Assembly: GCA_043758025.1 (NCBI GenBank)
Contig: JAYVOH010000098.1
Location: 199 to 64,198, forward strand
Reading direction: 5' to 3'
Length of the DNA stretch: 64,000 nt
Origin: Verrucomicrobiota bacterium
GTDB lineage: Bacteria > Verrucomicrobiota > Verrucomicrobiia > Verrucomicrobiales > Verrucomicrobiaceae
In this document: positions 1 to 45,301 of the stretch, piece after piece
Numbering within the stretch: position 1 is the first letter of the stretch
How the letters are laid out: each line of letters begins with the position of its first letter
Notes under the pieces: generated by a model
Seen by the model: the letters and a program-made list of their open reading frames with translations, nothing else
Told to the model about the DNA's origin: nothing
The model's database searches: none
Position numbers and translations under genes: made by a program

Positions 1-3000
1 CGGCGCGGGTGTGGTCACCTTCGGCGGCACTGTGACCCAGGCCTCAGGCAGCCGGAAGCTGACGAAATCCGGCACCGGCACGCTGACGCTCAACGGCGCG
101 AACACGTTCGTCGGCGGACTCATTGTGAACGCCGGCACGGTCATCCTCGGAACCAACACGGCCGCGGGCACTGGCACCTTCACGATGAGCACCGCCACCA
201 TCCAGGCCGGCGGCGCGGCGCGCACCCTCGCCAACGCCGTCACCCTCCTGGGCAACACGACCTTCAGCGGCGCCTACGACCTGACCTTCACCGGCGCGAC
301 CGTAGTGGCCGCCACGCGCACGCTCACCGTCAGCAACACGAGCACCACCTTCAGCGGCGTCATCAGCGGTGCGGGCGGACTGACGAAGGGCGGCTCCGGC
401 GCCCTCACGCTGGGCGGCGCTTCCGCGAACACCTTCGGCGGCAGCGTGACGGTGAATGACGGCACGCTCGTTTTCAACAAGACGGCGGGCGTGGATGCGA
501 TGGCCGGCACGGTGCTGACCATCGGCGACGCGGCGGGCGCGGCCAATTCCGCCACCTTGCAGCTCAGCGCCTCGAATCAGATCCCTGACACCGCGGGCGT
601 GACGGTCAACGCCGACGGCCAGCTCAATCTGCAAGGCTTCACCGATGCGATCGGCACGCTGACGATGAGCGGCGGCAGTGTGACCGGCACTGGCACCTCG
701 CTGCTCGTCCTCGGCGGCGATCTCACCGTGACCGCGACCGGAACGAATGTCGCACAGATCACCGCGAACGTCGGCCTCAACGCCAACCGCACTTTTACGA
801 TCAACGACAACGCCGTTTCCACGGACAACGACCTCGCCATTTCCGGCATCATTTCCACCGCCTTCGCGCTCACGAAGACCGGCGCGGGCACGCTGCTGTT
901 GAGCGGCACCAACACCTTCAGCGGCGGCGTGAACGTCAACGCCGGCACGCTCTCCATGGACAACGCCGCCGCGCTCGGCACCGGCGCGGTGAACGTCGGC
1001 GACACCGCCGGCACGAGCGGCGCGACTTTGCTCTTCAGCGCCACGGGAGGACGCACCGTGACGAACGCCATCGCCGTGCGCGCCGGCAGCAGCGGCACCG
1101 CGACGCTCGGCGGCCTGAACACGGGCGGCGCGAACATTTTCGGCGGCAACATCACGCTCAACAAGTCCGTCACGCTCACTGCCGCAGCGGGCGGCGAGGT
1201 GGCCTTCAACGGCGTGATCTCCGGCGCGCTCTTCGGCCTGACGAAGATCGGCGCGGGCACCGTGCGCCTCGGCGGCGCAAACACCTACACCGGCCTGACC
1301 ACGATCAGCACGGGCACGCTGGCCTATGGTGCCAGCAACGTGATCGCCACCGGCAGCGTGACCGTGGATGGTGCGACCGCAGTGCTCGATCTCGGCGCGA
1401 GCCGCACCGACACCGTGGGCCAGGTCATTCTCGACAACGGCGGCGTCATCACCGGCAGCGGCACGTCCGCGCTCGGCAGCACCGCAGCGTTCGATGTGCG
1501 CAACGGCTCCGTCGCCATCCCGCTCGGTGGCAGCGTCGCGCTGACGAAATCCACCAGCGGCACCGTCGTGCTCTCCGCGGCGAACACTTATACCGGCGCG
1601 ACCACGATCAGCGCGGGCACGCTCCAGCTCGGCGTCGCCAGCAGCATCCCATCCGCTTCCGCAGTCAGCGTCTCCGGCGGCGCGACGCTTGATCTCGGCG
1701 GCTTCAATCAAACCATCGGCTCGCTGGCCAGTGCGGGCACGGCGGCGCTCGGCGCGGCCACGCTCACGACGGGCGGCGACAATACCTCCACCACTTTTTC
1801 CGGCGTCATCGGCGGCACGGGCGGCCTGACAAAAAACGGCAGCGGCGTCTTCACTGTCAGCGGCACCAACACCTTCACCGGCGCGACCGCGATCAACGCG
1901 GGCACGCTCAAACTCGGCGCGGCGGGCGGCCTCCACAGCGCCACGGCGGTGAGCGTCGCGGGCGGGGCGACGTTCGATCTCAACAGTTTCTCCGCGACCG
2001 TCGGCTCGCTCGCCGGCGCGGGCAGCGTCACGCTCGGCAGCGGCGGGCTGAATACGGGTGGCAATAATTCAACCACGACCTTTTCGAACGCGATCAGCGG
2101 CAGCGGCGGGCTGACCAAAAGCGGCACCGGCACGCTCACGCTCACCGGCACCAACACCTTTACCGGTGCAGTTGCAGTCAACACCGGCACCCTGGCGCTC
2201 TCCGGCGCGTCCGGCCGCGCGGCCAGCGCGTCCGGTTTCACCATCGGCACCGGCGCGACGCTGACCCTCGACAGCAACGCGGGCGAAAACGCCGACCGCA
2301 TCGGCAACGGCGCGGCAGTCACGTTCACCGGCGGCACGCTGCGCTTCCTCTCCGACGGCAACGGCTCGACGGAAACCGTCGGCGCGCTCAACGCCTCCGG
2401 CGGCGCATCCACCATCACAGTCACGCACAACGGCGCGGTCACGGACAGCACCTCGCTCACGTTCAGTTCGCTCGGCACCATCGCCGGCGGGGCGACCGTG
2501 AATTTCACCGCCACGGGCGGCACCCTCGGCTCCACCACCACCGGCCCGCACATTTACATCGCCGGCCAGGCGAACGGGCTGCTCGGCGGCTGGGCGACGG
2601 TCGGCAGCAACTTCGCCGAATATTACATCGACGGCGTCCGCGCCTTCAGCAGCTACTACACCGGCAGCCTCGGCATCAACATCAACGACGCCGCAAAAAT
2701 CCCGCAGTTGGGCAGCAGCTCGCCTTCCACCGCTTACACGCTGACCAATGCGGGAACGACGACCGATCTTGGCTTGAATCTCAACGACCTCGCCACCGTG
2801 GATCTCGGCGCGGCGTCCACGCGCACGCTCAATCTCGCGGGCGGCGGCCTGATCAAAAGCACCGCCACCGCGACGACCATCTCCGGCGCCGGACGGCTCA
2901 CCGCGGGCGGCACGGCTAGCGGCACGCTCTCGGTTTCGGTGGACACGGGCCACACGCTCACGATTTCATCGGTCATCATCAACAACGCCGGCGTGAACGG

Positions 3001-6000
3001 CACCTACGGCGATGGCGACGACGGCGTGGTCTCGCTCTCGAAAGGCGACGCGGGCCTGCTCGTCCTCAGCGGCGCGAGCACCTTCGGCGGAAGCGTTTTC
3101 ATCAACGCGGGCACCGTGCAGATCGGCGCGGAAAACAATCTCGGCGCGTCGGCCAACGGCGTGATCTTCGGCGGCGGCACGCTCAGCGTCACCGCTGGCT
3201 TCACCGCGGGCACGGGGAAAGTTCTCACCGTCAGTTCCGATCTCAGCGGCACGCTCGACATTGCCTCGGGGCAGACGCTCACGCTCGGCAACGCCAGCGA
3301 CGTGCTCACCACCGGCAACACCGCGGGCGTGCTGCTCAAGGCCGGCGCGGGCGCGCTCGTGATCCAGGCGGCGAACCCCGCCTTCGACGGCACGATGCAA
3401 ATTGACGCGGGCAGCGTCGAGCTGCGCCACGCGCAGTCGCTCGGCGACTCGGTGAACCGCGGGCGCATCACGCTCAACGGCGGCACGCTCAAGCTGCGCA
3501 ACGACACGGGCACGAACTTCGCGAATGACGTGACCGTCGCCGCCAGCTCGACGGTGGATGTCGCGCGGCTGACCGGAACCACGCCCGCCGTCACGCACAC
3601 GCTCGGCGCGCTTTCCATCGGCACCCAGACGCTCACGATCAGCGGCAGCAACGGCGCGGCGCTCACCTTCGGCGCGGTCACGCTCACCGGCGGTGCGACG
3701 TTCAATCCGACGACCGCGGATGCCACGCTCGCTGCGGTTTCCGGCATGTTTGGATTCACAAAAACCGGCGCCGGCACGCTCGTGCTCAACGGCGCGGGCA
3801 GCTACACGGGCACGGCGACGGTGAGCGTCGGCACGCTGCGCCTCGGCGTCGCAGGCGGTGTGGCCTCGACATCGGCGGTCAGCGTCGCCAGCGGCGCGAC
3901 TTTCGATTTGAACAGCCTCAGCGCGACCATCGGATCGCTCACCGGCGCGGGCAGCGTCACCCTCGGCAGCGGCACGCTCACGACCGGCGGCGACAACACC
4001 AGCACGACTTTCTCCGGCGTCATCAGCGGCGGCGGCGGCCTCACAAAAACCGGCAGCGGCGTTTTCACCGTCAGCGGCACGAACACTTACTCGGGCATCA
4101 CCAGCGTCAGCAGCGGCGTGCTCAGGCTCGGCAGCGCGGGCGGCGTGCCGTCTTCCTCCGCGCTCAGCGTCAGCGTCGCGATCGGCGCGACTTTTGATCT
4201 GAACAATTTCAGCGCGACCATCGGCTCGCTCAGCGGCGCGGGCAGCGTCACGCTCGGCAGCGGCACACTCACCAGCGGCGGCGACAACACCTCGACCACC
4301 TTCTCCGGCGTCATCAGCGGCACCGGCGGCCTGACGAAAACTGGCACGGGCGCGCTCACGCTCTCCGGCGCGGACACCTTCACGGGCGCGGTCAACGTCA
4401 ACAACGGCGTCGTCATTGCCCAGGACTCCGCCGCGCTCGGCAGCACCGCGGGCGGCACGACCGTCGCCTCCGGCGCGGAGCTGCGAATCGCAGGCGGCAT
4501 CGCCGTCGGCGCGGAGCCGCTGACGCTGAGCGGCAGCGGCACGGGCAGCGCGGGAGCGTTGCGAATCATCAGCGGCATCGCCTCGGCCGCGGGCAACATC
4601 ACGCTCGCGGCCGCGGCATCCATCGGCGCGGACGCCGGCCAGCTCACGCTCGGCGGCACGATCAGCGGCGGCACGAACACCCTGACCTTCACCGGCGCGG
4701 GCAACATCCAGGCCGACGGCATCATCAGCGGCAGCAGCGCCCTGGTGAAGAACGGCGCGGGCACGCTCAAGCTGACCGCGGCGAACACCTACACCGGCGC
4801 GACGACGATCAATGCCGGCGCGGTCAATGTGCAGAACGGCGCGGCGTTTGGCGCGACCGGCGCGGGCGCGGTGACTCTGGTGAGCGGCGCGGCGATTCAG
4901 CTCAACAACGCCAGCGGCATCAATGTCGGCAACAAATCACTCACGCTCAACGGCACCGGCATCAGCGGCGCGGGCGCGATTGACAGCATCCTCGGACACC
5001 ATTCGTGGGCGGGCAGCATCACGCTCGCCACCGACACGACCATCGCCGTGGACGCCGACAGCCTCACGATTTCCGGCGTGATCGGCGAATCGGGCGGCGC
5101 GCGCGCGCTGACGAAGACCGGCGCGGGCACGCTCGTGTTCGTCGGCAGCAATTCCTACACCGGCGCGACGCTGATCAACGCCGGCATCCTTCAGCTCGGT
5201 TCCTCAGAGCGCATCGGCGACACCTCGGCGGTGCTCATCGCCGCGGGCGCGACACTTAATTTCAACGACTTCGATGAAACCGTCGGCTCGCTCGCGGGCG
5301 CGGGCACGGTTGATTTCGGCACGCTCCTCACCGCGTCGCTCAGCTCCGGCGGCGACAGCACCAGCACGACCTTTTCCGGCGTGCTCACCGGCACCGGCGA
5401 CCTCATCAAGACCGGCAGCGGCACCCTGACGCTGAGCGGCGCGAACACCTTCACCGGCACCGTGTTCATCAACGGCGGCGTGCTCTCGATTGACAGCGAC
5501 GCGCGGCTCGGCAACAGCGCCAACGCGCTCAACTTCGGCGGCGGCACACTCAAGCTGACCTCGGCGTTGACGATCAGCCGCGCCATCACCCTGAGCAGCG
5601 GCGGAACCGTGGACACCGCTGGCGTGAATTCCACCATCAGCAGCGCGATCGGCGGCGTCGGTTCGTTCACCAAGTCGGGCGCGGGCACGCTGAGCCTGAC
5701 CACGGCGAATAGCTACACCGGCGACACCACCGTGAGCACTGGCACGCTAAGCATCGGCTCCAGTGGCGCGATCGTAAGCGCGAACGTGGGCGTCAGCAGC
5801 GGCGCGACGCTTTCCATTGTCAGCGGCGGCACGATTCCCACCACCACCGCGCTGACCACGGACGGCACGGTGAATTTCAACAGCGCGACCGCCACCATCG
5901 CCTCGCTCAGCGGCGCGGGCACCGGCGTGCTCACCCTCAACAGCACCACCCTCACCGTCAGCAGCGGCAGCTACGCCGGCGTGGTGCAAAACGGCGCCAG

Positions 6001-7933
6001 CACGGGCAGCCTGACCAAGACCAGCACCGGCACCTCGACGCTCACCGGGGCGAACACTTACACCGGCGCGACGACCGTGAACCTCGGCACTCTGGCCCTG
6101 GGCACCGGCGGGTCGCTCGGAGGGACAGCCGTGACCGTCGGCAGTGGCACCACTCCGACCGCCACGGCGGGCAACGCCACCTTGCAGATCAATGGAAACT
6201 ATACCATCGGCACCACCTCCCTGGGCGGCCTCACCATCAAGGGCGGCAACACCGGCGGCACGCCTTTGGGCCAGGGAACGCTGAGCTTGCAGGATACGAC
6301 GATCAACACCCTGACTCTGGCCAACACCTCGGCCACCACGAACCTGACCCTCGGCGGCACCGCTGGAAATCCCTCCCTCCTGAGCTTCGACCTGGGCAAC
6401 TCCTCCACCGACCTCATCGCCGTCGGAAAAAAACTGACGCTCAACGCAGGTGGCGCAGTCATCAGCCTTAACCAGCTTGCCGGCACCAACATCGCCAACG
6501 GAACCTACACCCTGCTGAGCTTCACGGCCTTTGGCAGTGCTCCAGCGGGCGCATTCAGCCTGGCCGCCGGCAGCACGGTCTTCGGCGGTCACGCGTTTTC
6601 GTTGAGCGCTTATTCGAGCAGTTCCACAATCGAGTCGCTGATCGTCACCTCCAATGTCATTCCACCCATTGCCTACTGGACCGGGAGCCAGGACACATTT
6701 TGGAATTCTTTTGGCATCAGCCAGGTGAATACGAACTTCAGCACGGATGCCGCTGGCACCACGAATCCCAACCAGCTTCCAGGAAGCATCACGGATGTTT
6801 TCTTCACCGCCAACAGCGCCGCCAACCTCTCCACGACGCTCGGTTTGGACTTTTCCATCAAGAGTCTGACCTTCACCGGCACCGGCACCACGGCAGCTTC
6901 CAGCTCCGTGACCATCGGCGGCGCGAACACGCTCACGCTGGGCACCGGCGGCATCACGGTTCAGACCGGCTCCGCCGCCCACACCATCAGCAGCAACGTG
7001 GCCCTTGGCGTGGCCCAGTTCTGGACCAACAACAGCGGCAGCCTCCTGACCGTGAGCGGCAACGTCAGCAACAGCACTTACCTTCTCACCGTGGCCGGCA
7101 GCGGCAGCACCACCATTTCCGGCATCATCGGCAGTGGCAGCGGTGGCCTGACGAAGACCGGCGCAGGCACGCTCACGCTCTCCGGGCTGAACACTTACAC
7201 CGGGGCGACGTCAATCACCGGCGGCACGCTGCAAGCCGGCGTCGCGGGCGTGGGCCAGACCGGCGCCGGAGTGACTACCGTGGGCGATGGCACGAATGCG
7301 GCGACACTTGCCGGAACCGGCACCATCAGCGGCACAGTCAATGCCACCAATCACATCATTCGTGGTGTCGCCTCATTAAAGCCTGGGGACAGCGGCGGCA
7401 ATCTCAACGGTGCCTTGACCTTTAATGGCAACCTCAACCTCAACAACAATTCGCAGACGATTCTCCAGATCACCACCCGCACCGCCACCGCCGGGACATT
7501 CGGCGGCAACCCTGTCGGCTCCGCCGCCTACATCGCCTACCTCGCCGCCAACGTCGCCACCTGGAACAGCGCCACGCCCGGCAACCATGACAGCATCACC
7601 GTCAACGGCACGATAACCCTCGGCACTAACGCCGCGGGATTGATTCAGGTGCTGGACAACGGCTACGTCAGCCAAGCTCTACTTGGCGACGTCTATGATT
7701 TGCTGGACTGGAACAGCATCGTTGTGGGCAGTTTCAATTCGGGAACCACCATCCGCTCCGGTGGTGCCGGCGGTGGCGATCTCTTTCTGCCCGACCTCTC
7801 GGCGCGAGGACTCGGTTGGGACGTGCGCCACTTCACTAGTTCTGGAGTTCTCGTCGTAGTGCCGGAGCCGTCACGCGCAGTTATGATCTCGGCGGGGCTG
7901 GCTGCACTTTTGCTGCGCCGGAAAAGGCGCTGA
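1..7933 (+). CDS. Giant cell-surface protein, autotransporter-associated beta-strand repeat type, PEP-CTERM anchored (5' end outside window)
   Basis: The frame is open from the window edge to the TGA at 7931-7933. It encodes >2600 aa of Gly/Thr/Ala/Ser/Asn-rich beta-strand repeats (..GTGTLTLSGANTFTG..). The C-terminus VPEPSRAVMISAGLAALLLRRKRR is a PEP motif plus hydrophobic helix plus basic tail, typical of exosortase substrates. Confidence 0.9.
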   Translation, partial: GAGVVTFGGTVTQASGSRKLTKSGTGTLTLNGANTFVGGLIVNAGTVILGTNTAAGTGTFTMSTATIQAGGAARTLANAVTLLGNTTFSGAYDLTFTGATVVAATRTLTVSNTSTTFSGVISGAGGLTKGGSGALTLGGASANTFGGSVTVNDGTLVFNKTAGVDAMAGTVLTIGDAAGAANSATLQLSASNQIPDTAGVTVNADGQLNLQGFTDAIGTLTMSGGSVTGTGTSLLVLGGDLTVTATGTNVAQITANVGLNANRTFTINDNAVSTDNDLAISGIISTAFALTKTGAGTLLLSGTNTFSGGVNVNAGTLSMDNAAALGTGAVNVGDTAGTSGATLLFSATGGRTVTNAIAVRAGSSGTATLGGLNTGGANIFGGNITLNKSVTLTAAAGGEVAFNGVISGALFGLTKIGAGTVRLGGANTYTGLTTISTGTLAYGASNVIATGSVTVDGATAVLDLGASRTDTVGQVILDNGGVITGSGTSALGSTAAFDVRNGSVAIPLGGSVALTKSTSGTVVLSAANTYTGATTISAGTLQLGVASSIPSASAVSVSGGATLDLGGFNQTIGSLASAGTAALGAATLTTGGDNTSTTFSGVIGGTGGLTKNGSGVFTVSGTNTFTGATAINAGTLKLGAAGGLHSATAVSVAGGATFDLNSFSATVGSLAGAGSVTLGSGGLNTGGNNSTTTFSNAISGSGGLTKSGTGTLTLTGTNTFTGAVAVNTGTLALSGASGRAASASGFTIGTGATLTLDSNAGENADRIGNGAAVTFTGGTLRFLSDGNGSTETVGALNASGGASTITVTHNGAVTDSTSLTFSSLGTIAGGATVNFTATGGTLGSTTTGPHIYIAGQANGLLGGWATVGSNFAEYYIDGVRAFSSYYTGSLGININDAAKIPQLGSSSPSTAYTLTNAGTTTDLGLNLNDLATVDLGAASTRTLNLAGGGLIKSTATATTISGAGRLTAGGTASGTLSVSVDTGHTLTISSVIINNAGVNGTYGDGDDGVVSLSKGDAGLLVLSGASTFGGSVFINAGTVQIGAENNLGASANGVIFGGGTLSVTAGFTAGTGKVLTVSSDLSGTLDIASGQTLTLGNASDVLTTGNTAGVLLKAGAGALVIQAANPAFDGTMQIDAGSVELRHAQSLGDSVNRGRITLNGGTLKLRNDTGTNFANDVTVAASSTVDVARLTGTTPAVTHTLGALSIGTQTLTISGSNGAALTFGAVTLTGGATFNPTTADATLAAVSGMFGFTKTGAGTLVLNGAGSYTGTATVSVGTLRLGVAGGVASTSAVSVASGATFDLNSLSATIGSLTGAGSVTLGSGTLTTGGDNTSTTFSGVISGGGGLTKTGSGVFTVSGTNTYSGITSVSSGVLRLGSAGGVPSSSALSVSVAIGATFDLNNFSATIGSLSGAGSVTLGSGTLTSGGDNTSTTFSGVISGTGGLTKTGTGALTLSGADTFTGAVNVNNGVVIAQDSAALGSTAGGTTVASGAELRIAGGIAVGAEPLTLSGSGTGSAGALRIISGIASAAGNITLAAAASIGADAGQLTLGGTISGGTNTLTFTGAGNIQADGIISGSSALVKNGAGTLKLTAANTYTGATTINAGAVNVQNGAAFGATGAGAVTLVSGAAIQLNNASGINVGNKSLTLNGTGISGAGAIDSILGHHSWAGSITLATDTTIAVDADSLTISGVIGESGGARALTKTGAGTLVFVGSNSYTGATLINAGILQLGSSERIGDTSAVLIAAGATLNFNDFDETVGSLAGAGTVDFGTLLTASLSSGGDSTSTTFSGVLTGTGDLIKTGSGTLTLSGANTFTGTVFINGGVLSIDSDARLGNSANALNFGGGTLKLTSALTISRAITLSSGGTVDTAGVNSTISSAIGGVGSFTKSGAGTLSLTTANSYTGDTTVSTGTLSIGSSGAIVSANVGVSSGATLSIVSGGTIPTTTALTTDGTVNFNSATATIASLSGAGTGVLTLNSTTLTVSSGSYAGVVQNGASTGSLTKTSTGTSTLTGANTYTGATTVNLGTLALGTGGSLGGTAVTVGSGTTPTATAGNATLQINGNYTIGTTSLGGLTIKGGNTGGTPLGQGTLSLQDTTINTLTLANTSATTNLTLGGTAGNPSLLSFDLGNSSTDLIAVGKKLTLNAGGAVISLNQLAGTNIANGTYTLLSFTAFGSAPAGAFSLAAGSTVFGGHAFSLSAYSSSSTIESLIVTSNVIPPIAYWTGSQDTFWNSFGISQVNTNFSTDAAGTTNPNQLPGSITDVFFTANSAANLSTTLGLDFSIKSLTFTGTGTTAASSSVTIGGANTLTLGTGGITVQTGSAAHTISSNVALGVAQFWTNNSGSLLTVSGNVSNSTYLLTVAGSGSTTISGIIGSGSGGLTKTGAGTLTLSGLNTYTGATSITGGTLQAGVAGVGQTGAGVTTVGDGTNAATLAGTGTISGTVNATNHIIRGVASLKPGDSGGNLNGALTFNGNLNLNNNSQTILQITTRTATAGTFGGNPVGSAAYIAYLAANVATWNSATPGNHDSITVNGTITLGTNAAGLIQVLDNGYVSQALLGDVYDLLDWNSIVVGSFNSGTTIRSGGAGGGDLFLPDLSARGLGWDVRHFTSSGVLVVVPEPSRAVMISAGLAALLLRRKRR

Positions 7934-7935
7934 AC
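7912..7935. repeat. Direct repeat copy 1 (24 nt, GCTGCGCCGGAAAAGGCGCTGAAC), overlaps stop codon of giant PEP-CTERM gene
   Basis: Perfect 24/24 match to 10904-10927, read directly from the sequence. Confidence 0.9.
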
Positions 7936-7990
7936 AAATATTTAGCGCCCATCTCGCCGAAGATGGATGCGGCGCTTGCGGAGTATACTT

Positions 7991-8707
7991 TCAGTTTGCA
8001 GTCCGAACTTTCTTTGGCGCACCGCCTCGATACCCGCTCGGTGCCTCCAGCAGCCGCATTTGAGGGTCCACGTGACCTTTCCGTTGCGCCACATTCTGTA
8101 GAGAGTTCTGCTCGACGTCTTCATTGCCCCATTGATGCCAACCTAGACGCTTGAAACGAGCGAACAATTCGAGAAAAGGGCCTGGCGAACATGATTCAAT
8201 GATGTCGTAGATCTCGTCCGGCTTCCGGCTGTGCTCACGTTTGCGCGTTGCCAGCATATTCACCTGTGTCCGCCCCGGCTTGAGCGTCCTCATTGATCCA
8301 CGCACACCGAACAAAATCAGTTCAGTGACATTGCGGAAATAAAATCCAACTCCCCGACCATCAGGCCCGCCGTCTTTCCGCACCTTAAACCAGACCACGT
8401 TTGATTTGTAGGTGAACCCCCACGCTTTCATCACTTGAAGACCTTCTTGCAACAAGGCATTGGGAACCCACAAGTAGAGATGAGACTGAGCGGCAGCGAG
8501 TTTCCCGATGGGAAGATCCATGATCTCTTGGAGTTCCATGGTCGGATAGCGAAGCAGCCGCCGATGCTCTGGCGCGACCTTGCCTGTGGAATTCTGAAAG
8601 CGCCAAGGCGGGTCTGCCACGATTGTGGAATATCGGCCTTCGACCTTCTGAAGAAGATCTTCGGCGGGGGCAGGCTCAGGCGAGTGGATGCTAACAATCT
8701 TCGACAT
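7991..8707 (-). CDS. MT-A70 family N6-adenine DNA methyltransferase
   Basis: DPPW catalytic motif in ..YSTIVADPPWRFQN.., then ..HLYLWVPN..AWGF..WFK..; the C-terminal part SRKPDEIY matches the MT-A70 fold pattern. The start is placed at ATG 8707 (MSKIVSIH); the longest ORF would start at 8755. It overlaps the upstream endonuclease stop by 17 nt. Confidence 0.8.
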   Translation of the reverse strand: MSKIVSIHSPEPAPAEDLLQKVEGRYSTIVADPPWRFQNSTGKVAPEHRRLLRYPTMELQEIMDLPIGKLAAAQSHLYLWVPNALLQEGLQVMKAWGFTYKSNVVWFKVRKDGGPDGRGVGFYFRNVTELILFGVRGSMRTLKPGRTQVNMLATRKREHSRKPDEIYDIIESCSPGPFLELFARFKRLGWHQWGNEDVEQNSLQNVAQRKGHVDPQMRLLEAPSGYRGGAPKKVRTAN

Positions 8708-9317
8708 AAAGTTTTGAGGTGATTCCAAAGACAATGATCGGGCATCCACCACCACCGCCGCCTTCGATGCGCGGCAGAAGTTTACTCATGTGAGTCGTCG
8801 ATGCCCCAAACGATTCCCCGCGCCCAAGTTTAGCGACGACACTTTGAAGCTCATCACAGCGCGTGATGATGATCCCCACCGAGACGGTGCGAAGTTCAAA
8901 CAGCAGCCGGAAATTATTGAGGTCCCGATCATAAAATGGATCCTTGTTGTTCCATTCAATTTCTAGAGCGACACGATTCTTGAAGCAATCGACCTTGTGC
9001 GTTGGACTCTTAAACTCTGACTCATCCACAACAATCTTCGTGTCGAAGTGGCGTTCCGCCCATCCTTTCTTCTCAAACTCGCTGTCGATCCAGCCAGCCA
9101 CATCGCTCTTCCGACCTCCACCGACAGCAATGGCGCTTTTTAGCAACCGGAAGCGACCGAGCACATCATAAATGTCCGCGCATTGGTCTGAGAAATCAGC
9201 CTGCAGAATCGCCGACGCGTGTCTCCACTCATGGAGTTCATAATTCTCGCGGATAAATTCTGGAAAGTCTTCAAGTGCCACCGCGTGAGTTTTGCATCTT
9301 ACGGTGCGGAGCGCCAC
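8691..9317 (-). CDS. Type II restriction endonuclease, BglII/BamHI fold
   Basis: ..VDCFKNRVALEIEWNNKDPFYDRDL..VGIIITR..PIIVFGI.. parallels the BglII pattern IDFGKRDTLVEVQF..VAIIITKG..PIRLVGL (D..ExE/Q active-site block). GTG start at 9317. Sits next to methyltransferase genes. Visibly low GC. Confidence 0.7.
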   Translation of the reverse strand: MALRTVRCKTHAVALEDFPEFIRENYELHEWRHASAILQADFSDQCADIYDVLGRFRLLKSAIAVGGGRKSDVAGWIDSEFEKKGWAERHFDTKIVVDESEFKSPTHKVDCFKNRVALEIEWNNKDPFYDRDLNNFRLLFELRTVSVGIIITRCDELQSVVAKLGRGESFGASTTHMSKLLPRIEGGGGGGCPIIVFGITSKLYVEDC

Positions 9318-9418
9318 AAGAAATCATTATTCAGGTCAATCAGGTGGGCAAGGTGGGTCGTCACGACATCAATGCCAATCCACTGTCGCTTGAGCTTGTG
9401 CCGTTTACAGCGAACGAA
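9299..9418 (-). pseudogene. 3' remnant of a disrupted N4/N6 DNA methyltransferase (C-terminal AdoMet-binding region)
   Basis: The minus-strand frame reads FVRCKRHKLKRQWIGIDVVTTHLAHLIDLNNDFLWRSAP*. K(L)xRxWIGID followed by THLA is the conserved C-terminal block of beta-class DNA methylases. It begins immediately after the DUF4145 stop codon and has no start codon of its own. Confidence 0.6.
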
Positions 9419-10096
9419 TCACGTGCCCCGTGACTGCGCGTCTTTGCGGCCTCGCTCGACCATCGAAGGCAGGACATACATAAAAAGCCCAAGTGCCTTA
9501 GTAAAGTCGATACACTTCTTCGCATCTTCCTCCGTGGGAAGCGCAGCATCCTCATCGGCGTGACGCTCATTATTCGCATCAAGTCTTACATCATGGGCCC
9601 AAAGAGCCATCTCATCCGTGATGAGGCCTGCTGCCTTCGCGTCGTTGATTCTTTTGTTCAATGATCCTTCCTTCAACCCCTTCTGCTTTAGCATTGCATC
9701 CACGCTTGATGCACAAAGCATAATGGCACCGGATGGTGAGTGAAGACATTCGATCGCTTGGTTGAGAAATGATTCAGCCTTCGCGGGCAGGCCTTCCTGA
9801 ATTGCTTCCTGCCCTGGGAAAATCTCTGAAAGCGGATGTTCGTCGCTAAATGCCCATCCCAGCACAGCGCCGCCACATTTTGAGCAGACATAGACACGCC
9901 ACGATCTCGCCGAGGTTTGGTTGGAGTTATTAGTAGCAAAACGATGCACACTCTTGAGATAAGGGTTTGCGATGCTGCAATGCGGACATCGCGCAAGATT
10001 CAATGCATCGTCCGAAAGGCGGGTTGATGTCGAAGGGCGAGCCATAATCAATAGATTTTGAATTTCGTAGCACTTCAAAACTGCGTTTCCTGACAA
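9419..10096 (-). CDS. Zinc-ribbon + DUF4145 domain protein (defence-island associated)
   Basis: N-terminal CPHC..(x26)..CSKCGG zinc-ribbon-like pairs. The C-terminal helical region ..AIMLCASSVDAMLKQKG..LNKRINDA..GLITDEMALWAHDVRLDANNERHAD.. matches the DUF4145 pattern. An alternative start is ATG 10045 (MARPSTS). Visibly low GC. Confidence 0.65.
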   Translation of the reverse strand: MSGNAVLKCYEIQNLLIMARPSTSTRLSDDALNLARCPHCSIANPYLKSVHRFATNNSNQTSARSWRVYVCSKCGGAVLGWAFSDEHPLSEIFPGQEAIQEGLPAKAESFLNQAIECLHSPSGAIMLCASSVDAMLKQKGLKEGSLNKRINDAKAAGLITDEMALWAHDVRLDANNERHADEDAALPTEEDAKKCIDFTKALGLFMYVLPSMVERGRKDAQSRGT

Positions 10097-10542
10097 CCAA
10101 AGGCAAGATAGAGTGAGCCGGTGGGCTTGAGCACGCGATGCAGTTCCAGCAGGCGGTTGGCCATCATGGTGAGGTAGGCCATCATATTGTTCTCCCCGAG
10201 GAAGGCGCGCAGAGCCTGCATCATCGCCGCGACCGCGTTGTTCCGCTGGTGCAGCAGTTCATCGAACTCCCGCTCCGCCTGCTCGCCCCAATGCCATGAG
10301 TCCTCGAAGGCGGTGATCTGCGACTGGCTGTATTCTTGTAGGGCGTCTGTGCCAGACGCCGAAGCTTTGGGTGTTTCGCCGGTTGACACAACCGGCCTAC
10401 AGATATTCTTCGGCGACTTGAAGAGGAGGTTGTAGTCCCGCTTGGAGTTGAACGGCGGATCAAGGTAGATGAGGTCCACGCTCTCCGGCGCGATGGACTC
10501 GCGCAGGACGTAAAGGTTGTCGCCGTAGTAGAGCTGGTTCAT
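10075..10542 (-). pseudogene. 5' fragment of the same disrupted N4/N6 DNA methyltransferase
   Basis: MNQLYYGDNLYVLRESIAPESVDLIYLDPPFNSKRDYN.. carries the DPPF catalytic motif IV, followed by ..AFEDSWHWG..MMAYLTMMANRLLELHRVLKPTGSLYL. Homology then stops (AFGCQETQF*) at about nt 10104, where intact family members continue with HCD... Confidence 0.7.
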
Positions 10543-10653
10543 GCCGTGCCTGTCTTTGGGCGATGCTAACCCGAATGTCAACGATGTCTGCGGGCCGAAC
10601 GCCACACTGCCTTACCTTTAGGGGGATAGCTCTGGGGAAACGCTGAACAAAGG

Positions 10654-10714
10654 GTAGAAGCGACGCCCTCGTCGCTTGCTGCACTGGGATAAGCGACGGT
10701 GGCGTCGCTTCTAC
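10654..10714. repeat. Twin-hairpin palindromic element (clamp GTAG/CTAC, two hairpins with identical 8-bp stems AAGCGACG/CGTCGCTT)
   Basis: Hairpin A is 10658-10677 (loop CCCT) and hairpin B is 10691-10710 (loop GTGG). The outer 14-nt arms 10654-10667 and 10701-10714 are perfectly complementary. Confidence 0.7.
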
Positions 10715-10789
10715 TTGCGATTAATCAGCGCTTCCCAGTGCGGGCTAACAAGTTCGTGCCCTTGGCAGCGAGCGGAGTTTTTTTGCAGC

Positions 10790-10830
10790 GCACGCGCCCT
10801 CGCGTGCCAAAGTCCGCGCCTCCGCGGACT
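10790..10830. repeat. Two adjacent GC-rich hairpins with C-rich tetraloops
   Basis: GCACGCG-CCCT-CGCGTGC (10790-10807) and AGTCCGCG-CCTC-CGCGGACT (10811-10830). Confidence 0.6.
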
Positions 10831-10903
10831 CCCTGCGGATGCCACTTGTTGTTGGATCATCGAGGGCTTGCGCTTCGCGAGGGCGCAAAGGGCCGCACGC
10901 GAG

Positions 10904-10927
10904 GCTGCGCCGGAAAAGGCGCTGAAC
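10904..10927. repeat. Direct repeat copy 2 (24 nt) closing the restriction-modification islet
   Basis: Perfect match to 7912-7935. Confidence 0.9.
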
Positions 10928-11001
10928 TTGGGAGCAGTCTCTTTGATTCACACGGGAATATTTTCTTGCTGACAACCCGCGCGGCGTGTGTTCAGTAACC
11001 T

Positions 11002-12459
11002 ATGGGCGATCTATCGTTATCTTTGTCATTCGATGACGTGCTTCTCCTCCCGGCCAAAAGCTCCGTGCTGCCGGGAGATGTGGAACTGGGCACGCAACTC
11101 ACGCCGCTCCTGCGGCTTCATATTCCCGTGCTGTCCTCTGCCATGGACACGGTCACGGAAAGCGAGCTGGCCATCGCGCTCGCTCGCGAGGGCGGCATGG
11201 GCGTGATTCACCGCGCATGTCCGATTGACTACCAGGTCGAGCAAGTCGCGCGGGTGAAGCGCTCGGAAAACACTGTTATTCACGACCCGCTGACCGTAAG
11301 GCCGGACATGACCTTGAGCGAAGTGACGCAGTTGATGCGCGAGCGCGGCGTGAGCGGCTTCCCCGTTGTCGATCAGAGCAATGTTCTCGTCGGCATGGTG
11401 ACGAGTCGCGACATGTGGTATATCGAGGACGATAACACACCCGTGAGCGAAGTGATGACGCCGCGCGAACGGCTGGCCACGGGCACACCGACGACCACGC
11501 AAGAGGAGGCGCTGAAGCAAATCTTCGTGCATCGCATTGAAAAACTTCCGCTGGTGGACAGCGCCGGACGACTCGCCGGATTGATCACGAAGCAGGATAT
11601 CGGGAAGATGCAAACCTTCACCAACGCCGCAAAAGATTCACATGGTCGCCTGCGTGTGGGCGCTGCCGTCGGCGTAAGCGAGGACTGCGTGCAGCGCGCG
11701 CTCTTGCTGCAAGCCGCGGGCGCGGATGCCGTGTTCATTGATGCCGCTACTGGTCACACAGATCGAGTGCTCAAGGTCATCTCGCAATTGCGCGAAGCCT
11801 TGGGCGAAAGGACGCCGATTGTGGCGGGCAACGTGGTCACGAAAGATGGCGCGAAAGATTTGTGCAATGCCGGCGCGTCAGCCATCAAGGTCGGCGTCGG
11901 CCCCGGTTCCATTTGCACCACGCGCATTATCTCCGGCGTGGGCATGCCGCAATTCACCGCTGTGCAGGAAGTCGCGGAAGTATGCCGCCCGCGCGGGGTG
12001 GCGGTCATTTCCGATGGCGGCATCCGTTACTCCGGCGACGTGGTCAAGGCCATCGCTGCGGGCGCAGACTGCGTCATGATCGGTTCTATTCTCGCGGGCA
12101 CGGCGGAAAGCCCCGGCGCGATGGTTCGCTGGCAAGGCCGCACTTTCAAAGAGTATCGCGGCATGGGTTCGCTCAAGGCGATGCGCAAGGGCGCGGGCGA
12201 CCGTTACGGCCAGAACTCATCCGGCAAGCTGGTGCCCGAAGGTGTGGAAGCGCGCGTGCCTTACAAAGGCCCGCTCAGCGAAGTCGTCTTCCAGCTCATG
12301 GGCGGTCTGCGCAGCGGCATGGGTTATGTCGGTGCCAACAATCTCGATGAACTGCGCAGCAAGGCGCGCTTCGTGCGCATCACCGCCGGCGGACTCAAGG
12401 AAAGCCATCCGCACGACATTCTGATCACCGAGGAACCGGTTAACTACGAGGTGGGCTAA
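11002..12459 (+). CDS. guaB: IMP dehydrogenase
   Basis: [10 protein letters not shown] start, tandem CBS region, catalytic loop [11 protein letters not shown], and ..GMGS..; length 485 aa. Confidence 0.95.
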
Positions 12460-12468
12460 GCCTGTCGC

Positions 12469-36610: not shown

Positions 36611-38782
36611 ATGACTTCCGCTGCCGCGACCGCAACCCATCATGCCACCATCAATGGTTTGGAGAATGTGCCGAGTGTCGGTGTGCTCATCATTCCGAGC
36701 AGGCTGGGGTTCTCTGATCTGATCAATTTGGAAAAAATGCTTCCCGGGCGGGAGCTGGTTTATTTGATCGAGCACGACGCGCAGTTCTCGGCGGAATTAA
36801 AAAAGCATCTGCACAGCGACGGAGTCCATGCCCTTGAAATACCCCCTGGCCCGGCAAAAGCGGATGCGCTGCATCGCGAGATCCAAGGCGCCGCCGCCGC
36901 TGGCAAAGTCATCATCTATGTGCCTTCAGAGTTGGTGGCCCCCGGCGCCCCCCTGTGCACCATCCCAGGCGCGAAGCTCGAATTTCTCATGCAGTTGAAG
37001 TTGCCGGTGCTGCCTCTCCACGTGCTGCACACCCATGATCTCGCCATGGCTATTGAGAGGAAGAGGCCGTCAGACGCGGCGGTCTTCTCTTTCGGCACCG
37101 TGGTGTCCGAGGGTTCGGTGGCAGCGATTCAGGAGTCACTCTTGCTGCTCTCGGAGAAAAGCTTCTCCCGGCTTCCGCTGCTTGATCTGCATCTGGCGCG
37201 CGCACTATTGATGGGATTAAAAAAACACCGTTCTCACGCCTGTGTCATTGACGGGAAAGACGACAGGATTTTCAGCTTCGATAGGATTCTGGCCCTGGCC
37301 ATCGTGCTCAGCAAGCACATCCGGTCCGCCACCAAGAAAAACCGGGTGGGCATCATCCTCCCTCCGTGTGGGGCCTCCACGGTAGCCAACGTCGCGGTGC
37401 TGCTGGCCGGGAAAGTTCCGGTGAATCTCAATTTCACGGCGGGTCGCGCCGCGATTGAAAGCGCTATGAAGCAGGCCGAGACCGATCACTACATCACCTC
37501 CGATTTGTTTGTTCGGAAAGTGCAGACTTTCCCGTGGCCGCCCAACCGCCAGCTCACTTTCATCGAGCGACTCCTGCCGATGAAGAAGGGGGCCATCATC
37601 TTTTGGTCGGCCGTCTCCAAGTTTCTCCCGACCTCCATCCTCGCGATGGTTCTGGGCGTTCCCAAAAAAGGCGGCGACTCCGAGGCCACGCTCCTTTTCA
37701 CCAGCGGCAGCAGCGGCGACCCCAAGGGCGTGGTGATGAGCCATCGCAATCTCATGGCCAACATCTGCCAGTTCAGTTCGCGCCTGAATCTGAAGCGTGG
37801 AGACAGTATCCTCGGCTGCCTGCCGCTCTTTCACTGCTTCGGCAGCACGGTGACGCTCTGGTATCCCATGGTCCAAGGGATCAATGTGGTGACTTATCCC
37901 ACGCCGCTGGAGATCAAAAAACTCGCCGAGCTGGTGCACAAGCACAAGATCACCGTGATGATTTCCACCCCGACCTTCCTGCGCGGTTATCTCAAGGGCG
38001 TGAACCCTGAGATGCTGGCGTCATTGAATCTCATTGTCACCGGCGCGGAGAAACTACCCAGGGCGGTGGCCGATGCCTTCGAATCGCGCTTCGGAAAAAA
38101 AGTTTACGAAGGATATGGCCTCACGGAAACCTCGCCCGTCTCCAATGTCAACCTGCCCGATCCCGTGCCACCCAGTGGAGCCGGTGATAGCTCGGTCATG
38201 ACCACTCATCGCCCGGGCAGCGTCGGCCAGTTGGTGCCGGGCTTGGCGATGAAAATCACCGTGCCGGAATCTGACTCGCCCCTCAGCTTGCATCAAAGCG
38301 GCATGATCTGGTTCAAGGGGGCCAATGTTTTCAAAGGCTATCTAAAAAATCCCAAGAAGACGGAGGAGGTCATTCAGGACGGATGGTTCCGCACTGGTGA
38401 CATCGGACGCATGGATGCAGATGGTTTCCTCTATATTGAAGGCCGTCTCAGCCGTTTCTCGAAGATCGGCGGCGAAATGGTGCCGCACGAAACCGTTGAG
38501 GAGAACCTGGTCAGAGCCCTGAATCTCGAAAGTGAAAGCAACCGCTGCATCGCTGTGGTCGGCATCCCCGACGCGGACAAAGGTGAGGCGCTGGTGATGC
38601 TCACCACCTTGCCCGGCGGTTCCGTGCAGCAGGAGATTCTCGATCTGCGTTACAAGCTGCTCGATCGAGGCATGACGCCGCTCTGGATACCCAAAAAGAT
38701 GATCCGCGTTCAGGAAATTCCCGTGCTGGCCAGCGGCAAGCTTGATATCAAAGCGTGTGAAGTCATCGCGATGACTGCGTGA
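36611..38782 (+). CDS. Aas-like bifunctional-type protein: degenerate acyltransferase-like N-domain + AMP-dependent acyl-(ACP/CoA) synthetase
   Basis: AMP-binding motifs LLFTSGSSGDPKGVVMSHRNL, YGLTETSP, GWFRTGDIG and the terminal ..ASGKLD. The N-terminal ~230 aa resembles PlsC-type acyltransferase, but the HxxxxD position reads PSRLGFSD. Confidence 0.8.
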   Translation: MTSAAATATHHATINGLENVPSVGVLIIPSRLGFSDLINLEKMLPGRELVYLIEHDAQFSAELKKHLHSDGVHALEIPPGPAKADALHREIQGAAAAGKVIIYVPSELVAPGAPLCTIPGAKLEFLMQLKLPVLPLHVLHTHDLAMAIERKRPSDAAVFSFGTVVSEGSVAAIQESLLLLSEKSFSRLPLLDLHLARALLMGLKKHRSHACVIDGKDDRIFSFDRILALAIVLSKHIRSATKKNRVGIILPPCGASTVANVAVLLAGKVPVNLNFTAGRAAIESAMKQAETDHYITSDLFVRKVQTFPWPPNRQLTFIERLLPMKKGAIIFWSAVSKFLPTSILAMVLGVPKKGGDSEATLLFTSGSSGDPKGVVMSHRNLMANICQFSSRLNLKRGDSILGCLPLFHCFGSTVTLWYPMVQGINVVTYPTPLEIKKLAELVHKHKITVMISTPTFLRGYLKGVNPEMLASLNLIVTGAEKLPRAVADAFESRFGKKVYEGYGLTETSPVSNVNLPDPVPPSGAGDSSVMTTHRPGSVGQLVPGLAMKITVPESDSPLSLHQSGMIWFKGANVFKGYLKNPKKTEEVIQDGWFRTGDIGRMDADGFLYIEGRLSRFSKIGGEMVPHETVEENLVRALNLESESNRCIAVVGIPDADKGEALVMLTTLPGGSVQQEILDLRYKLLDRGMTPLWIPKKMIRVQEIPVLASGKLDIKACEVIAMTA
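38735..38782 (+). repeat. Direct repeat copy 1 (3' end of Aas-like gene, ..GKLDIKACEVIAMTA*)
   Basis: Aligns with 43591-43638. The exact 23-nt core ATCAAAGCGTGTGAAGTCATCGC lies at 38747-38769. Confidence 0.85.
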
Positions 38783-39137
38783 CTTGCGGTCCTTATTTTT
38801 TCTGCGGCAGATTCAACTTCATTGATTGCGCCACGGCATATCCGGCGAGCTTGGAGATCGCGCAGAGTGGTCGGGAGGGAGGACTTGCTCGTATGCTGAG
38901 TTCGTGAAGTGGCTGCTGTAACCGCACGCGATTCACCGCGCCCTACCGACTGCAAGCCAAGGGGAAGTCAAGACATACAGAGACGGAGCAGCCTCCCGCA
39001 AGCACAAGACAAGAAATGAAAGAAACTACTGCTACAGACTACACTACGTTGTAACAAGTTTACTCATAAGCTGACGCAGAGTGTTTCAGCGGAGGGTAAG
39101 CGCATATCCGCGAACGGCGGCGTTGTGTTAGAGTTGG

Positions 39138-43413: not shown

Positions 43414-43590
43414 TTCAGTGTTCTCCGTTGTTCGTAGAATGGAAATGGTTAACCCCAGTTTGGTTGCTGGCAATCAACAAATGGTAGATTTTCGTTACCG
43501 ACCATGCCGTGCTGATAGAATGGTGAAGGCAATCGATTGCGCCCGGCTTGATGCGAATACAAGCCGATGAAAAGAATGGTGTCCGGCTGC

Positions 43591-43638
43591 GGCAAGCTGG
43601 ACATCAAAGCGTGTGAAGTCATCGCCAGGAACGCATGA
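43591..43638 (+). repeat. Direct repeat copy 2 (orphan copy of Aas-like gene 3' end, ..GKLDIKACEVIARNA*)
   Basis: The 23-nt exact core lies at 43603-43625, with flanking partial identity. No gene body upstream. Confidence 0.85.
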
Positions 43639-43647
43639 CCGAAGCTC

Positions 43648-45273
43648 CTAGTTTTTCCGTGACAAAAACAACTTCATCGACTGCGCCACATAAAAACCGG
43701 CGAGTTTGGCAAAGCCTGGCTCATTGATGATTTGATCCAGTTGATCGCGTGCTTCCTCCGGAGTTCCTTTGCGTTGCGCAAGTTCCGCGCGGTAGAGTGC
43801 GCAGCGAAGCTGGTCTTCCGGCACTGTGTTCAAGGAGCGGGCGTGCTGATAGAAATCATCCGCCTGACCGAAATTTCCCTCAAGCGTGGACAGCATCCCG
43901 GCCAGTTCAAGTAACAGCGGTTTTTTCATTTCCTCCGCAATGCGGACGATTTCCCGGTGAAATTTTTTTGTGTCATGCGGTAGAAAACGATGCGCCTGCT
44001 CCTGGTAAAGCGCGTAGTCTGCACCCGGCGACCCGCTCCCGGGCAGCGCGCGCTCCTTGCGAAATGGCTGGTAGAGAGGATCGCCGACCACCACGTTCAT
44101 CCATGAGAGCACCGGAGTGCCGCTCCATGCGGCCTCGCCCAGCGTGAAGCCTTCAAGCAGCCGCGCATTCATCAGGTCAAAGTGCGTGGTCAGCGTGAGG
44201 TAGGGTTCCCAGACATTTCCCAAGACCGCTGCTGCGCCGTGGTCGAGCATCGGCCCGCACCAGTTGTCTGTTTTCGTGCGCAGGGTGGCGGCGCTGAATG
44301 AATGAAGATGACACGCGATGGCTCCCGGCTTGAACCTGAATCCCGGTGATCCCAGGGCGCCGCTGCATTGGTCGTTATACCAGCCGAAGTAGAGAATCGT
44401 GTCCGGCAGCGGCCAGTTGCTGCGCAGGATTTCCTTGTTCCGGTCGGCATAGACAGGAATGCCTGCATCGCGAAAAAGTTTCACGCTGTTTCCCAGCCAG
44501 CGCTCGCCCTCGAGAAATGCTCCGTCTTTGAGGGCAAAGTCCACCACCGCGCGCCCCCACAAGCCTTCCTTCTCGGCCTTCAACGTTTCATTGATCATGC
44601 GCTTGACGATGTCATCGGTCGCCGCATCGAGGCGTCCGATGAGAAGCTGGCCGCGTGCCTCATAGTGATCGGCGAATCGGCGGGTGGATTGGTAGTATCG
44701 GTTTTCAATGCCGCCCTTGATAGGCCGCTGCATAAGTCCCAGCGCTGCCAGCTCGCTGTCCACGCTGGCCTCGTCGGTATCCATCACATTGGGCTTAGCC
44801 TCATGCGAGGCCCGGCTTACACGCAGCGGAATGCCGCGAATCAGCACCAGCACCCGCACGTTTTGGCTAACCACTTGCGGCCCCTGGCTGATCGGGCTGC
44901 CGTTTGGATCCAGCACATCGCGGGTCTCCACGACCCACCATTTCTTTTCGGTGAATTTTTTCAGCAAAGGTTCACGGATCGATTTTTCAAACTCATCCCG
45001 CGTGATGGTTTCTTCCTTGGAGCACTCGATGCCCACCACGCGATCATCTGGGATTAGTCTCAGGCCGGCGTAATATTTCGCCAGTGCTTCCGAGCCTTCA
45101 CATGCCGGATTGAAGACGACCACCGCTTCCTTGACCGGCTCCCATTCTCGCGCCGGAGTAGGGGCGGGCATCGCAGGTGGCGCTGCGGAAACCCGATGAA
45201 CACCCGCCAGTAGTGAAAGTAACAGCAGCTTTCTCAACAGGGCCGTGAAGCCCTGTCGTCGCGTGATTCTCAT
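43648..45273 (-). CDS. Secreted hypothetical protein with C-terminal TPR-like repeats (possibly TIGR03790-type family)
   Basis: Signal peptide after MRITRRQGFTALLRKLLLLSLLAGVHRVSA (the ORF opens at 45312). ..VVVFNPACEGSEALAKYYAGLRLIPDDRVV.. is recalled as typical of a Verrucomicrobia/Planctomycetes conserved family. That family call is from memory only. Confidence 0.65.
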   Translation of the reverse strand: MRITRRQGFTALLRKLLLLSLLAGVHRVSAAPPAMPAPTPAREWEPVKEAVVVFNPACEGSEALAKYYAGLRLIPDDRVVGIECSKEETITRDEFEKSIREPLLKKFTEKKWWVVETRDVLDPNGSPISQGPQVVSQNVRVLVLIRGIPLRVSRASHEAKPNVMDTDEASVDSELAALGLMQRPIKGGIENRYYQSTRRFADHYEARGQLLIGRLDAATDDIVKRMINETLKAEKEGLWGRAVVDFALKDGAFLEGERWLGNSVKLFRDAGIPVYADRNKEILRSNWPLPDTILYFGWYNDQCSGALGSPGFRFKPGAIACHLHSFSAATLRTKTDNWCGPMLDHGAAAVLGNVWEPYLTLTTHFDLMNARLLEGFTLGEAAWSGTPVLSWMNVVVGDPLYQPFRKERALPGSGSPGADYALYQEQAHRFLPHDTKKFHREIVRIAEEMKKPLLLELAGMLSTLEGNFGQADDFYQHARSLNTVPEDQLRCALYRAELAQRKGTPEEARDQLDQIINEPGFAKLAGFYVAQSMKLFLSRKN

Positions 45274-45301
45274 TTGAGTATGAACATTCATCACCATGCA
45301 A

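Follow-up and report, generated by a model that had tools for sequence, protein, structure and literature searches.

Within a 64,000-nt stretch of a metagenome-assembled genome (MAG) from a Verrucomicrobiota bacterium (GCA_043758025.1; 3.87 Mb in 339 contigs, here G000), a perfect 24-bp direct repeat brackets 2968 bp of DNA that hold a restriction-modification (R-M) gene pair. The stretch, hereafter the window, is positions 199–64198 of contig C98 (JAYVOH010000098.1), and the gene order at the locus, which begins on the abutting contig C96, runs sorA, sorB, a giant gene for a PEP-CTERM surface protein, the 24-mer, a remnant of sorB (sorB′), an MT-A70 methylase gene, a BglII-type endonuclease gene, the tail of a second methylase, a DUF4145 gene, the head of that second methylase, three repeats, the 24-mer again, ~10 nt, the guaB leader, and guaB. 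The bracketed 2968 bp are a composite and not one cassette, and we tentatively attribute the repeat to a single recombinase-independent (illegitimate) joining event rather than to a self-mobile element.

A Unique 24-bp Repeat Encloses Composite DNA

The 24-bp repeat is exact, unique, and real. The two copies of the 24-mer (GCTGCGCCGGAAAAGGCGCTGAAC) are identical at 24/24 positions, as an original prediction made from the letters of the window had stated, and the match is beyond chance (0 matches across 100 shuffles). The window contains no third copy even at 3 mismatches, and ungapped extension with mismatches allowed gained nothing on either side. The original prediction had proposed a genome-wide search for further copies; that search returned exactly two in 3.87 Mb (≤3 mismatches), so a dispersed repeat is rejected. 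Elsewhere, the 24-mer is absent from 5/6 other genomes of the genus and from JGI metagenome contigs, and a search of all GTDB species genomes recovered it only in the sister MAG G006 (JAYVZW010000239.1, Verrucomicrobiota), twice and in the same layout. Logan and ENA contigs assembled from other runs span both copies and their flanks at 100% identity, and the DUF4145 gene is also called in independent contigs. Because these contigs reproduce the layout, the structure is real; we reject an assembly artifact on this ground, and 24 nt also lies below the assembly k-mer size.

The two copies sit in different surroundings. Copy 1 takes in LRRKRR and the stop codon of the PEP-CTERM gene, as had been noted, and copy 2 is non-coding: it lies 75 nt upstream of the guaB start (11002), and the open reading frames (ORFs) that overlap it have no Pfam match. 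Inside the 24-mer is a 5-6-5 palindrome (GCGCC-GGAAAA-GGCGC). A consensus site that would indicate a terminator or promoter role was found at neither copy, microhomology amounts to ≤1 nt at either junction of copy 2, and no inverted repeat pairs the sequence from 7936 onward with that ending at 10903, hence the segment has no terminal inverted repeats. A 9-bp hairpin (GGCGCTGAA / TTTAGCGCC) spans the joint between copy 1 and sorB′ (7926–7949), and the fold of 7900–7960 has a z-score of −1.9.

Base composition divides the bracketed DNA internally. It is AT-richer than both flanks, as predicted (GC content 0.543, vs. 0.674 in the giant gene and 0.616 in guaB), but against the genome mean of 0.568 it stands only at the 13th percentile of the genome. 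GC is 0.51–0.54 over 7936–10096 and 0.59–0.61 over 10105–10903, and the core at 7987–10105 (GC 0.521) falls at the 3rd percentile. The edges of this low-GC R-M block lie 51 bp inside the left copy and ~800 bp inside the right copy. The single R-M islet of the original prediction thus dissolves into a low-GC block at ~7987–10105 only, the rest being a sorB remnant, a methylase fragment of host-like GC, and genus-typical dispersed repeats.

The genes between the copies lie on the minus strand throughout, and Pfam bore out the content first proposed for them (an MT-A70 methylase, a BglII-fold endonuclease, a DUF4145 protein, and methylase fragments). With full-length domains in both proteins and a catalytic motif in the methylase, the MT-A70 and BglII/BstYI-type genes form a predicted type II R-M pair; the endonuclease gene overlaps the start of the methylase gene by 17 nt. 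The methylase is further supported by PADLOC (MTase_II, E 2e-98) and by MT-A70 proteins in PDB (E 1.6e-19). For the endonuclease phmmer found no PDB match; it has thousands of 196-aa homologues, with an MT-A70 partner in both other contexts examined. The pair is an ordinary BglII-family/MT-A70 system. It resembles the BglII/BstYI R-M family in its full-length PF09195 domain and its compact overlapping genes and departs from it in the partner, which here is MT-A70 (adenine-N6 type), whereas M.BglII is a methylase of the N6_N4 (PF01555) type.

Such pairs also occur alone. In two other genomes a BglII-type/MT-A70 pair with 84–85% protein identity forms a bare 1.3-kb unit between housekeeping genes; the DNA similarity to these two pairs covers only 8021–9284, and no DUF4145 gene, 24-mer-like sequence, or mobility gene was found around them. 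Around other BglII/MT-A70 pairs we found neither a long repeat nor the 24-mer, apart from an 11-bp repeat in one metagenomic genome (L033). There the pair lies between direct repeats CGCCATAGCTT (5975–5985 and 7321–7331), an arrangement with a probability of ~7% by chance.

The head and the tail of a methylase lie on opposite sides of the DUF4145 gene, and therefore an older methylase gene was split by DUF4145. We take the motif of the tail to be that of an N6_N4 methylase from what is known of the family. No homologue of the N-terminal fragment was found in 40 relatives.

Both Inner Ends Are Broken Chromosomal Sequence

On the left, the bracketed DNA opens in the middle of a gene. The first base after copy 1 (7936) is also the first base of sorB′, which enters the gene at codon 84 and stops at 7986, four bases short of the MT-A70 stop codon, where the R-M block cuts it (7986/7987). 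It is 78% identical to sorB of G004, 75% to that of G005, and 69% to the intact sorB of its own genome, and it carries ~8 private changes (~16%), mostly non-synonymous. The match to G004 (E 5.7e-6 per genome) falls at the collinear place upstream of guaB. An intact sorA-sorB pair lies directly upstream of the giant gene (C96:2690–4319), so sorB′ is a second, decayed copy. We took its start as 7936: BLAST reached 7921 with the sorB homology only by opening a 2-nt gap, beyond which 9/10 positions match, and in the in-frame comparison an extension into the 24-mer was at chance level and was rejected.

The giant gene that ends in copy 1 begins at C96:4823 and encodes ~2922 aa in total. The end of C96 and the start of C98 consist of the same 98 nt, a 60-mer shared between them is unique in the genome, and the gap between the contigs is only a repeat-induced break in the assembly. 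Alignments with paralogues of the giant protein in relatives reach its last residue. The intact sorB of this genome differs from that of G004 at 46% of four-fold sites, vs. 25% in guaB; this unusual divergence suggests that sorAB and the giant gene were imported together from another lineage.

On the right, the bracketed DNA ends inside a dispersed repeat. Three repeat families occupy the right-hand portion of the bracketed DNA (Table 1): a 66-bp repeat with ~10 further copies in its own genome, a “twin-hairpin” element resembling a miniature inverted-repeat transposable element (MITE), whose copies are 90–97% alike among G000, G003, and G006, and a second MITE-like element. Full copies of the last family read ..GCACGCGAGG|GCGCGTGCGCTCCAAA, the latter part being the 3′ terminal inverted repeat, and the element in the window ends with ..GCACGCGAGG at 10903/10904, its last ~16–17 nt replaced by copy 2. 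Copy 2 is not this MITE’s own diverged terminus, a candidate rejected as chance (10/15 matches, two gaps, negative alignment score). A likeness between the 24-mer and an arm of the twin-hairpin MITE (in common, CGCTGAACAAA) was also judged to be chance because it includes 3 nt of sorB′. With sorB cut at codon 84 and a MITE deprived of its end, both inner borders are breakpoints in genus-typical chromosome sequence. The three repeat families recur across the genus, and therefore the segment has long been resident in a genome of this genus.

Native sequence resumes almost at once beyond copy 2. Homology with the genus returns ~10 nt after it, at ~10938 for G005 and G003 and at 10960 for G004 and G002. 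Between guaB and guaA stands a CvfB-like S1-domain gene (12469–13305); in G004 guaA follows guaB directly.

Table 1. Features of the repeat-bracketed locus, and duplicated gene tails elsewhere in the genome
Feature	Position	Strand	Evidence and remarks
Giant autotransporter-repeat/PEP-CTERM surface protein gene, 3′ part	2..7933	+	ORF list
Direct repeat, copy 1	7912..7935	+	Last 7 codons LLRRKRR (first L partial), TGA stop, 2 nt
sorB′, 3′ remnant of sulfite-dehydrogenase cytochrome-c gene (codons K84–Y100, 51 bp)	7936..7986	+	In-frame, ungapped match
MT-A70-family (DPPW) adenine methyltransferase, 238 aa, intact	7991..8707	-	Pfam PF05063, E 2e-30, positions 1–172/172
BglII/BstYI-family type II restriction endonuclease, 196 aa, intact	8691..9281	-	Pfam PF09195, E 9e-45, positions 1–163/163
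C-terminal remnant, presumed N6_N4 DNA methylase (..KRQWIGIDVVTTHLAHLID.., ..RQWIGIDV..)	~9300..9410	-	Minus-strand translation
Zinc-ribbon + DUF4145 protein, 208 aa	9419..10045	-	Pfam PF13643, E 4e-10; weak PADLOC PD-T7-4 match, E 4e-4
N-terminal N6_N4_Mtase fragment (DPPF motif), GC 0.594	10105..10545	-	Pfam/PADLOC
Dispersed two-hairpin repeat, 66 bp, in-frame inside methylase fragment	10337..10402		Copies in own genome; matches in relatives
Palindromic twin-hairpin MITE-like element, ~105 nt, termini (C)TAGGGAA(A/G)CGCTGA inverted	10635..10736		Alignment of 11 copies (L037–L047; G000, G003, G006)
Second MITE-like dispersed repeat, truncated	10779..10903		Full copies on C228, C83, C188
Direct repeat, copy 2	10904..10927	+	Non-coding
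guaB leader and guaB (IMP dehydrogenase), native	10938..12459	+	guaB ORF 11002..12459
AMP-binding enzyme gene (36611..38782), tail repeat	~38726–38835 and 43583–43690		~110 nt, imperfect; 23-nt exact core
guaA tail	Three copies		68 nt, 81–94% identical
truD tail	C174:9373–9549 and +1933		177 nt, 87% identical; encloses gene with Fic motif (HPFLDGNGRLGR)
Nucleotidyltransferase gene tail	C337:22908–22997 and +862		90 nt, 91% identical; encloses ~770 bp with small ORFs

The sorB–guaB Spacer Is Variable and the Patch Lies in a Shared Tract

Relatives of the bacterium place different DNA ahead of guaB. In G004 and G002 (guaB 91% and 88% identical, respectively) the order is sorA (for a molybdopterin sulfite dehydrogenase), sorB (for a small cytochrome c), a spacer of ~200–450 bp, and guaB, and the giant gene, the R-M genes, and the 24-mer are all absent from both genomes. 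In G003 and G001 a different gene stands upstream of guaB, and G003 retains the last ~55 nt of sorB ahead of it. Since sorB lies next to guaB in relatives, the adjacency is ancestral and the spacer is a variable spot. The original prediction had also asked whether relatives carry the same gene order without any repeat, and none carries such an order.

No empty site, that is, the giant gene with a single 24-mer, was found in genus relatives, GTDB species genomes, or JGI contigs. Its junction would read ..GCACTTTT-24mer-TTGGGAGCAGTC, and that of a circle or excision product ..GCACGCGAG-24mer-AAATATTTAGCG. Where relatives lack the islet, the giant gene and the 24-mer are missing from them as well. 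Beyond G000, the giant gene is present only in G006, which has the islet too, and a JGI metagenome search with the C-terminus of the giant protein returned only a 42% relative. Contigs from the population with an identical guaB or an identical endonuclease all contain the islet.

The two islet-bearing genomes share a near-identical tract that is larger than the bracketed DNA. G000 and G006 show 9 differences over 7412–12044 and 1 over 7936–10600; outside these limits they diverge by ~18% in the giant gene (5804–7300), by ~5% at 12045–13035, and by 1–8% further on. The tract (4.6 kb, against a background identity of 82–96%) runs from the end of the giant gene across the R-M patch and through the first 1 kb of guaB. 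It thus takes in ~500 bp to the left of the repeats and 1.1 kb to their right, and its borders do not coincide with the repeats. To judge from this pattern of identity, the tract reflects recent homologous recombination via the flanks and not repeat-driven movement.

Origin of the Repeat

The anatomy of the locus favors a single illegitimate joining event, a reading that we put slightly short of an even chance. The DNA after copy 1 is a fragment of sorB from the ancestral locus, and therefore it is not the arm of an element. The 24-mers are perfect while sorB′ has undergone ~16% private change, so the event is younger than the decay of sorB′; were the two of equal age, 24 nt would have stayed unchanged with a probability of ~0.015–0.02, as estimated from the sorB′ comparison. 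A dedicated element would be expected to have its own arms and, as a rule, a recombinase, relatives elsewhere, and an attB site in related genomes. We looked for the first three and found none, and the anatomy fits an illegitimate event instead.

Such an event may have joined two versions of the variable sorB–guaB spacer. In one, the giant PEP-CTERM gene would have stood directly upstream of the guaB leader. The other would have held a long-resident defence patch, with a sorB whose tail had been clipped by the BglII/MT-A70 cassette, a methylase broken by DUF4145, and the MITEs. A 2968-bp piece of this second version, with arbitrary ends (mid-sorB and mid-MITE), would then have been joined into the first directly behind the stop codon of the giant gene, with the last 24 bp of the target copied on both sides. 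One route would be a staggered break filled in after the capture of a fragment. Another would be repair synthesis that changed template twice between the alleles, with the second switch arriving 24 nt behind the exit point of the first. The intact R-M pair probably stabilizes the patch through post-segregational killing, and ordinary homologous recombination through its flanks now carries the patch from one lineage to another. The sequence in which events occurred, the allele that served as donor, and the mechanism (break or template switch) are what we infer from the anatomy described above.

Several observations weigh against a single illegitimate event. No allele with the giant gene, a single 24-mer, and the guaB leader in succession has been found, and we infer the insertion at this point. 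A length of 24 bp is below the >30-bp criterion for a “long target duplication” and within the range of recombinase core repeats, and recombinase core sites typically have an architecture like that of the 5-6-5 palindrome. A later deletion that shortened a once longer repeat could account for the loss of the MITE's end at copy 2. Moreover, at least four other loci, some of them revealed by a genome-wide scan for unique direct repeats, have an integrase-less islet directly behind a stop codon, between duplicated gene 3′ ends (guaA twice, the AMP-binding enzyme, truD, and the nucleotidyltransferase). The tail copies of truD and of the nucleotidyltransferase gene end at the stop codon, and their differences fall mainly at third codon positions. 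The AMP-binding repeat is a duplication that takes in the 3′ end of its gene with the stop and the region beyond, as well as the tail of a convergent gene (43648..45312), and its 4.8-kb islet (GC 0.50) holds three minus-strand genes (for a CarboxypepD_reg-domain protein, a DUF900 hydrolase, and one unknown protein) and no recombinase. Such recurrence hints that the mechanism is systematic and not accidental.

The strongest alternative is that of the original prediction, in which the repeat is an attL/attR scar. Here an integrase that acted in trans, or that was lost later, would have integrated the DNA site-specifically at the 3′ end of the PEP-CTERM gene, leaving something akin to a cis-mobilisable element (CIME). 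We regard this as unlikely. What stands of it is a unique repeat at a stop codon that brackets DNA which genus relatives lack at this locus, and further features fit: the repeat spans the last codons and the stop with a crossover 2 nt past the stop, as in classical integration at gene 3′ ends, it contains the palindrome, the other integrase-less islets likewise lie between duplicated gene ends, and the nine tyrosine recombinase genes on other contigs of the genome could act in trans (serine recombinases were not found in it). What does not stand is the inner flanks, which are a mid-gene sorB fragment and a truncated MITE, that is, broken host-type sequence instead of element-specific arms. A recombinase in cis is also lacking; the absence of an integrase between the repeats, already noted in the prediction, extends to all of C98 and C96, on which neither Phage_integrase nor Resolvase had a match. 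In addition, the 24-mer and the unit occur, the sister MAG apart, nowhere else in GTDB species genomes, JGI contigs, or the genus. The target is a strain-specific giant gene and not a conserved one, and the repeats of the other islets, which lie in conserved genes, are 37–177 nt long and diverged, where this one is short and perfect. Finally, what lies between the copies is composite DNA that has had a long local history.

CIMEs are integrase-less remnants bounded by attL and attR, known from the ICESt1 family of Streptococcus thermophilus. The locus resembles them in its direct repeats at a gene 3′ end around cargo that has no recombination module and in the similar islets behind guaA, truD, and other genes. 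Unlike them, it has yielded no related integrase-bearing element, attB, or attP, its inner flanks are fragments of a host gene and a MITE, and its target is strain-specific. A Xer/dif-type site, as used by integrative mobile elements exploiting Xer (IMEX), has 28 nt, compared with the 24 nt of a repeat that here lies in a gene end.

Two further explanations appear improbable to a like degree. In one, this verrucomicrobial lineage has an unrecognised insertion machinery, trans-acting or host-encoded, that sets small cassettes of defence or toxin genes immediately behind stop codons while duplicating 24–177 bp of the gene tail; at least five loci, among them the R-M patch, would have arisen in this way, and the palindromic 24-mer would be near the minimal site. 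In the other, copy 2 is a secondary, templated patch of 24 nt. The sequence from sorB′ through the R-M genes and MITEs to guaB would be old native DNA. Homology-facilitated illegitimate recombination (HFIR) would have attached the giant gene to it at 7935/7936, and a break in the hairpin-prone MITE would later have been mended with 24 nt templated from 3 kb upstream. At 22%, sorB′ has diverged from G004 as much as neutral sites of the two lineages have (25% between G000 and G004 at four-fold sites of guaB), which fits an old native remnant; the MITE is truncated exactly at copy 2; and a perfect repeat beside a decayed sorB′ would be expected if the two differ in age. However, this explanation requires two independent illegitimate events, the junctions of copy 2 show almost no microhomology, and bacterial examples of such templated insertions are, to our knowledge, poorly documented.

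A tandem duplication is a still poorer candidate, and we consider it very improbable. The repeat would be the relic of a duplicated unit running from sorB codon 84 through the giant gene to the 24-mer, with a novel joint between the 24-mer and codon 84, and the second giant-gene copy would have been mostly replaced by the defence patch, leaving its last 24 nt before the guaB leader. Such a relic accounts, with no foreign donor, for the intact sorB beside sorB′, for the joint at 7935/7936, and for the native leader right after copy 2. Yet sorB′ is only 69% identical to the genome’s own sorB while the 24-mers are identical, which makes an equal age improbable (P ~0.02), and a 24-mer duplication younger than the decay of sorB′ therefore argues against this origin; many later steps would also be needed, and a 9-kb tandem repeat would be quickly lost by homologous recombination. 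A composite mobilized by a DNA transposon or MITE is unlike the locus, which has no terminal inverted repeats and a duplication of 24 bp, not <15 bp.

Relation to Known R-M Insertions

The preferred reading, a single illegitimate joining event, has counterparts among known recombination pathways and R-M insertions. Its likeness to HFIR and to microhomology-mediated break-induced replication (MMBIR) lies in joints at arbitrary positions in genes and repeats, in the combination of material from allelic loci, and in a short stretch copied twice. Template switching of the HFIR/MMBIR type usually involves 3–10 bp of microhomology and no 24-bp duplication, and we know of no such event demonstrated in this phylum.

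R-M units with flanking direct repeats and without mobility genes are a recognized class, and those between direct repeats have been sorted into three classes, namely site-specific recombination, insertion with long target duplication, and chance insertion between repeats (PMC2853133). The locus is like insertion with long target duplication (Nobusato et al. 2000; Furuta, Abe & Kobayashi 2010, PMC2853133) in having intact R and M genes within 2968 bp, a unique repeat of target sequence, and no integrase or transposase, and the adjoining remains of another methylase recall the “substitution by other RM genes” class of that work. The published criteria are R and M homologues, an insert of <20 kb, no other mobile element, a target duplication of >30 bp, and a single copy at the empty locus (PMC2853133). 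Here the repeat is 24 bp vs. >30 bp, no genome with an empty site aligns, a situation that their scheme files as “substitution,” and the repeats enclose a composite patch whose R-M block ends well inside both copies. The locus works like the long-target-duplication class but is not a demonstrated member of it.

Implications

The locus is a case of a defence locus built and spread without a mobility gene of its own in an uncultured Verrucomicrobium. A hotspot between two housekeeping genes has gathered an R-M pair, a broken older methylase, a DUF4145 gene, and MITEs, and an illegitimate event would have placed this patch behind a surface-protein gene and left that gene undamaged. In the debate over the movement of R-M systems, the locus adds a case from outside Proteobacteria and Helicobacter. 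It also counsels caution, in that a direct repeat together with defence genes does not by itself imply att sites. If the recurrent stop-codon islets of this genome share one mechanism, that mechanism would merit study.

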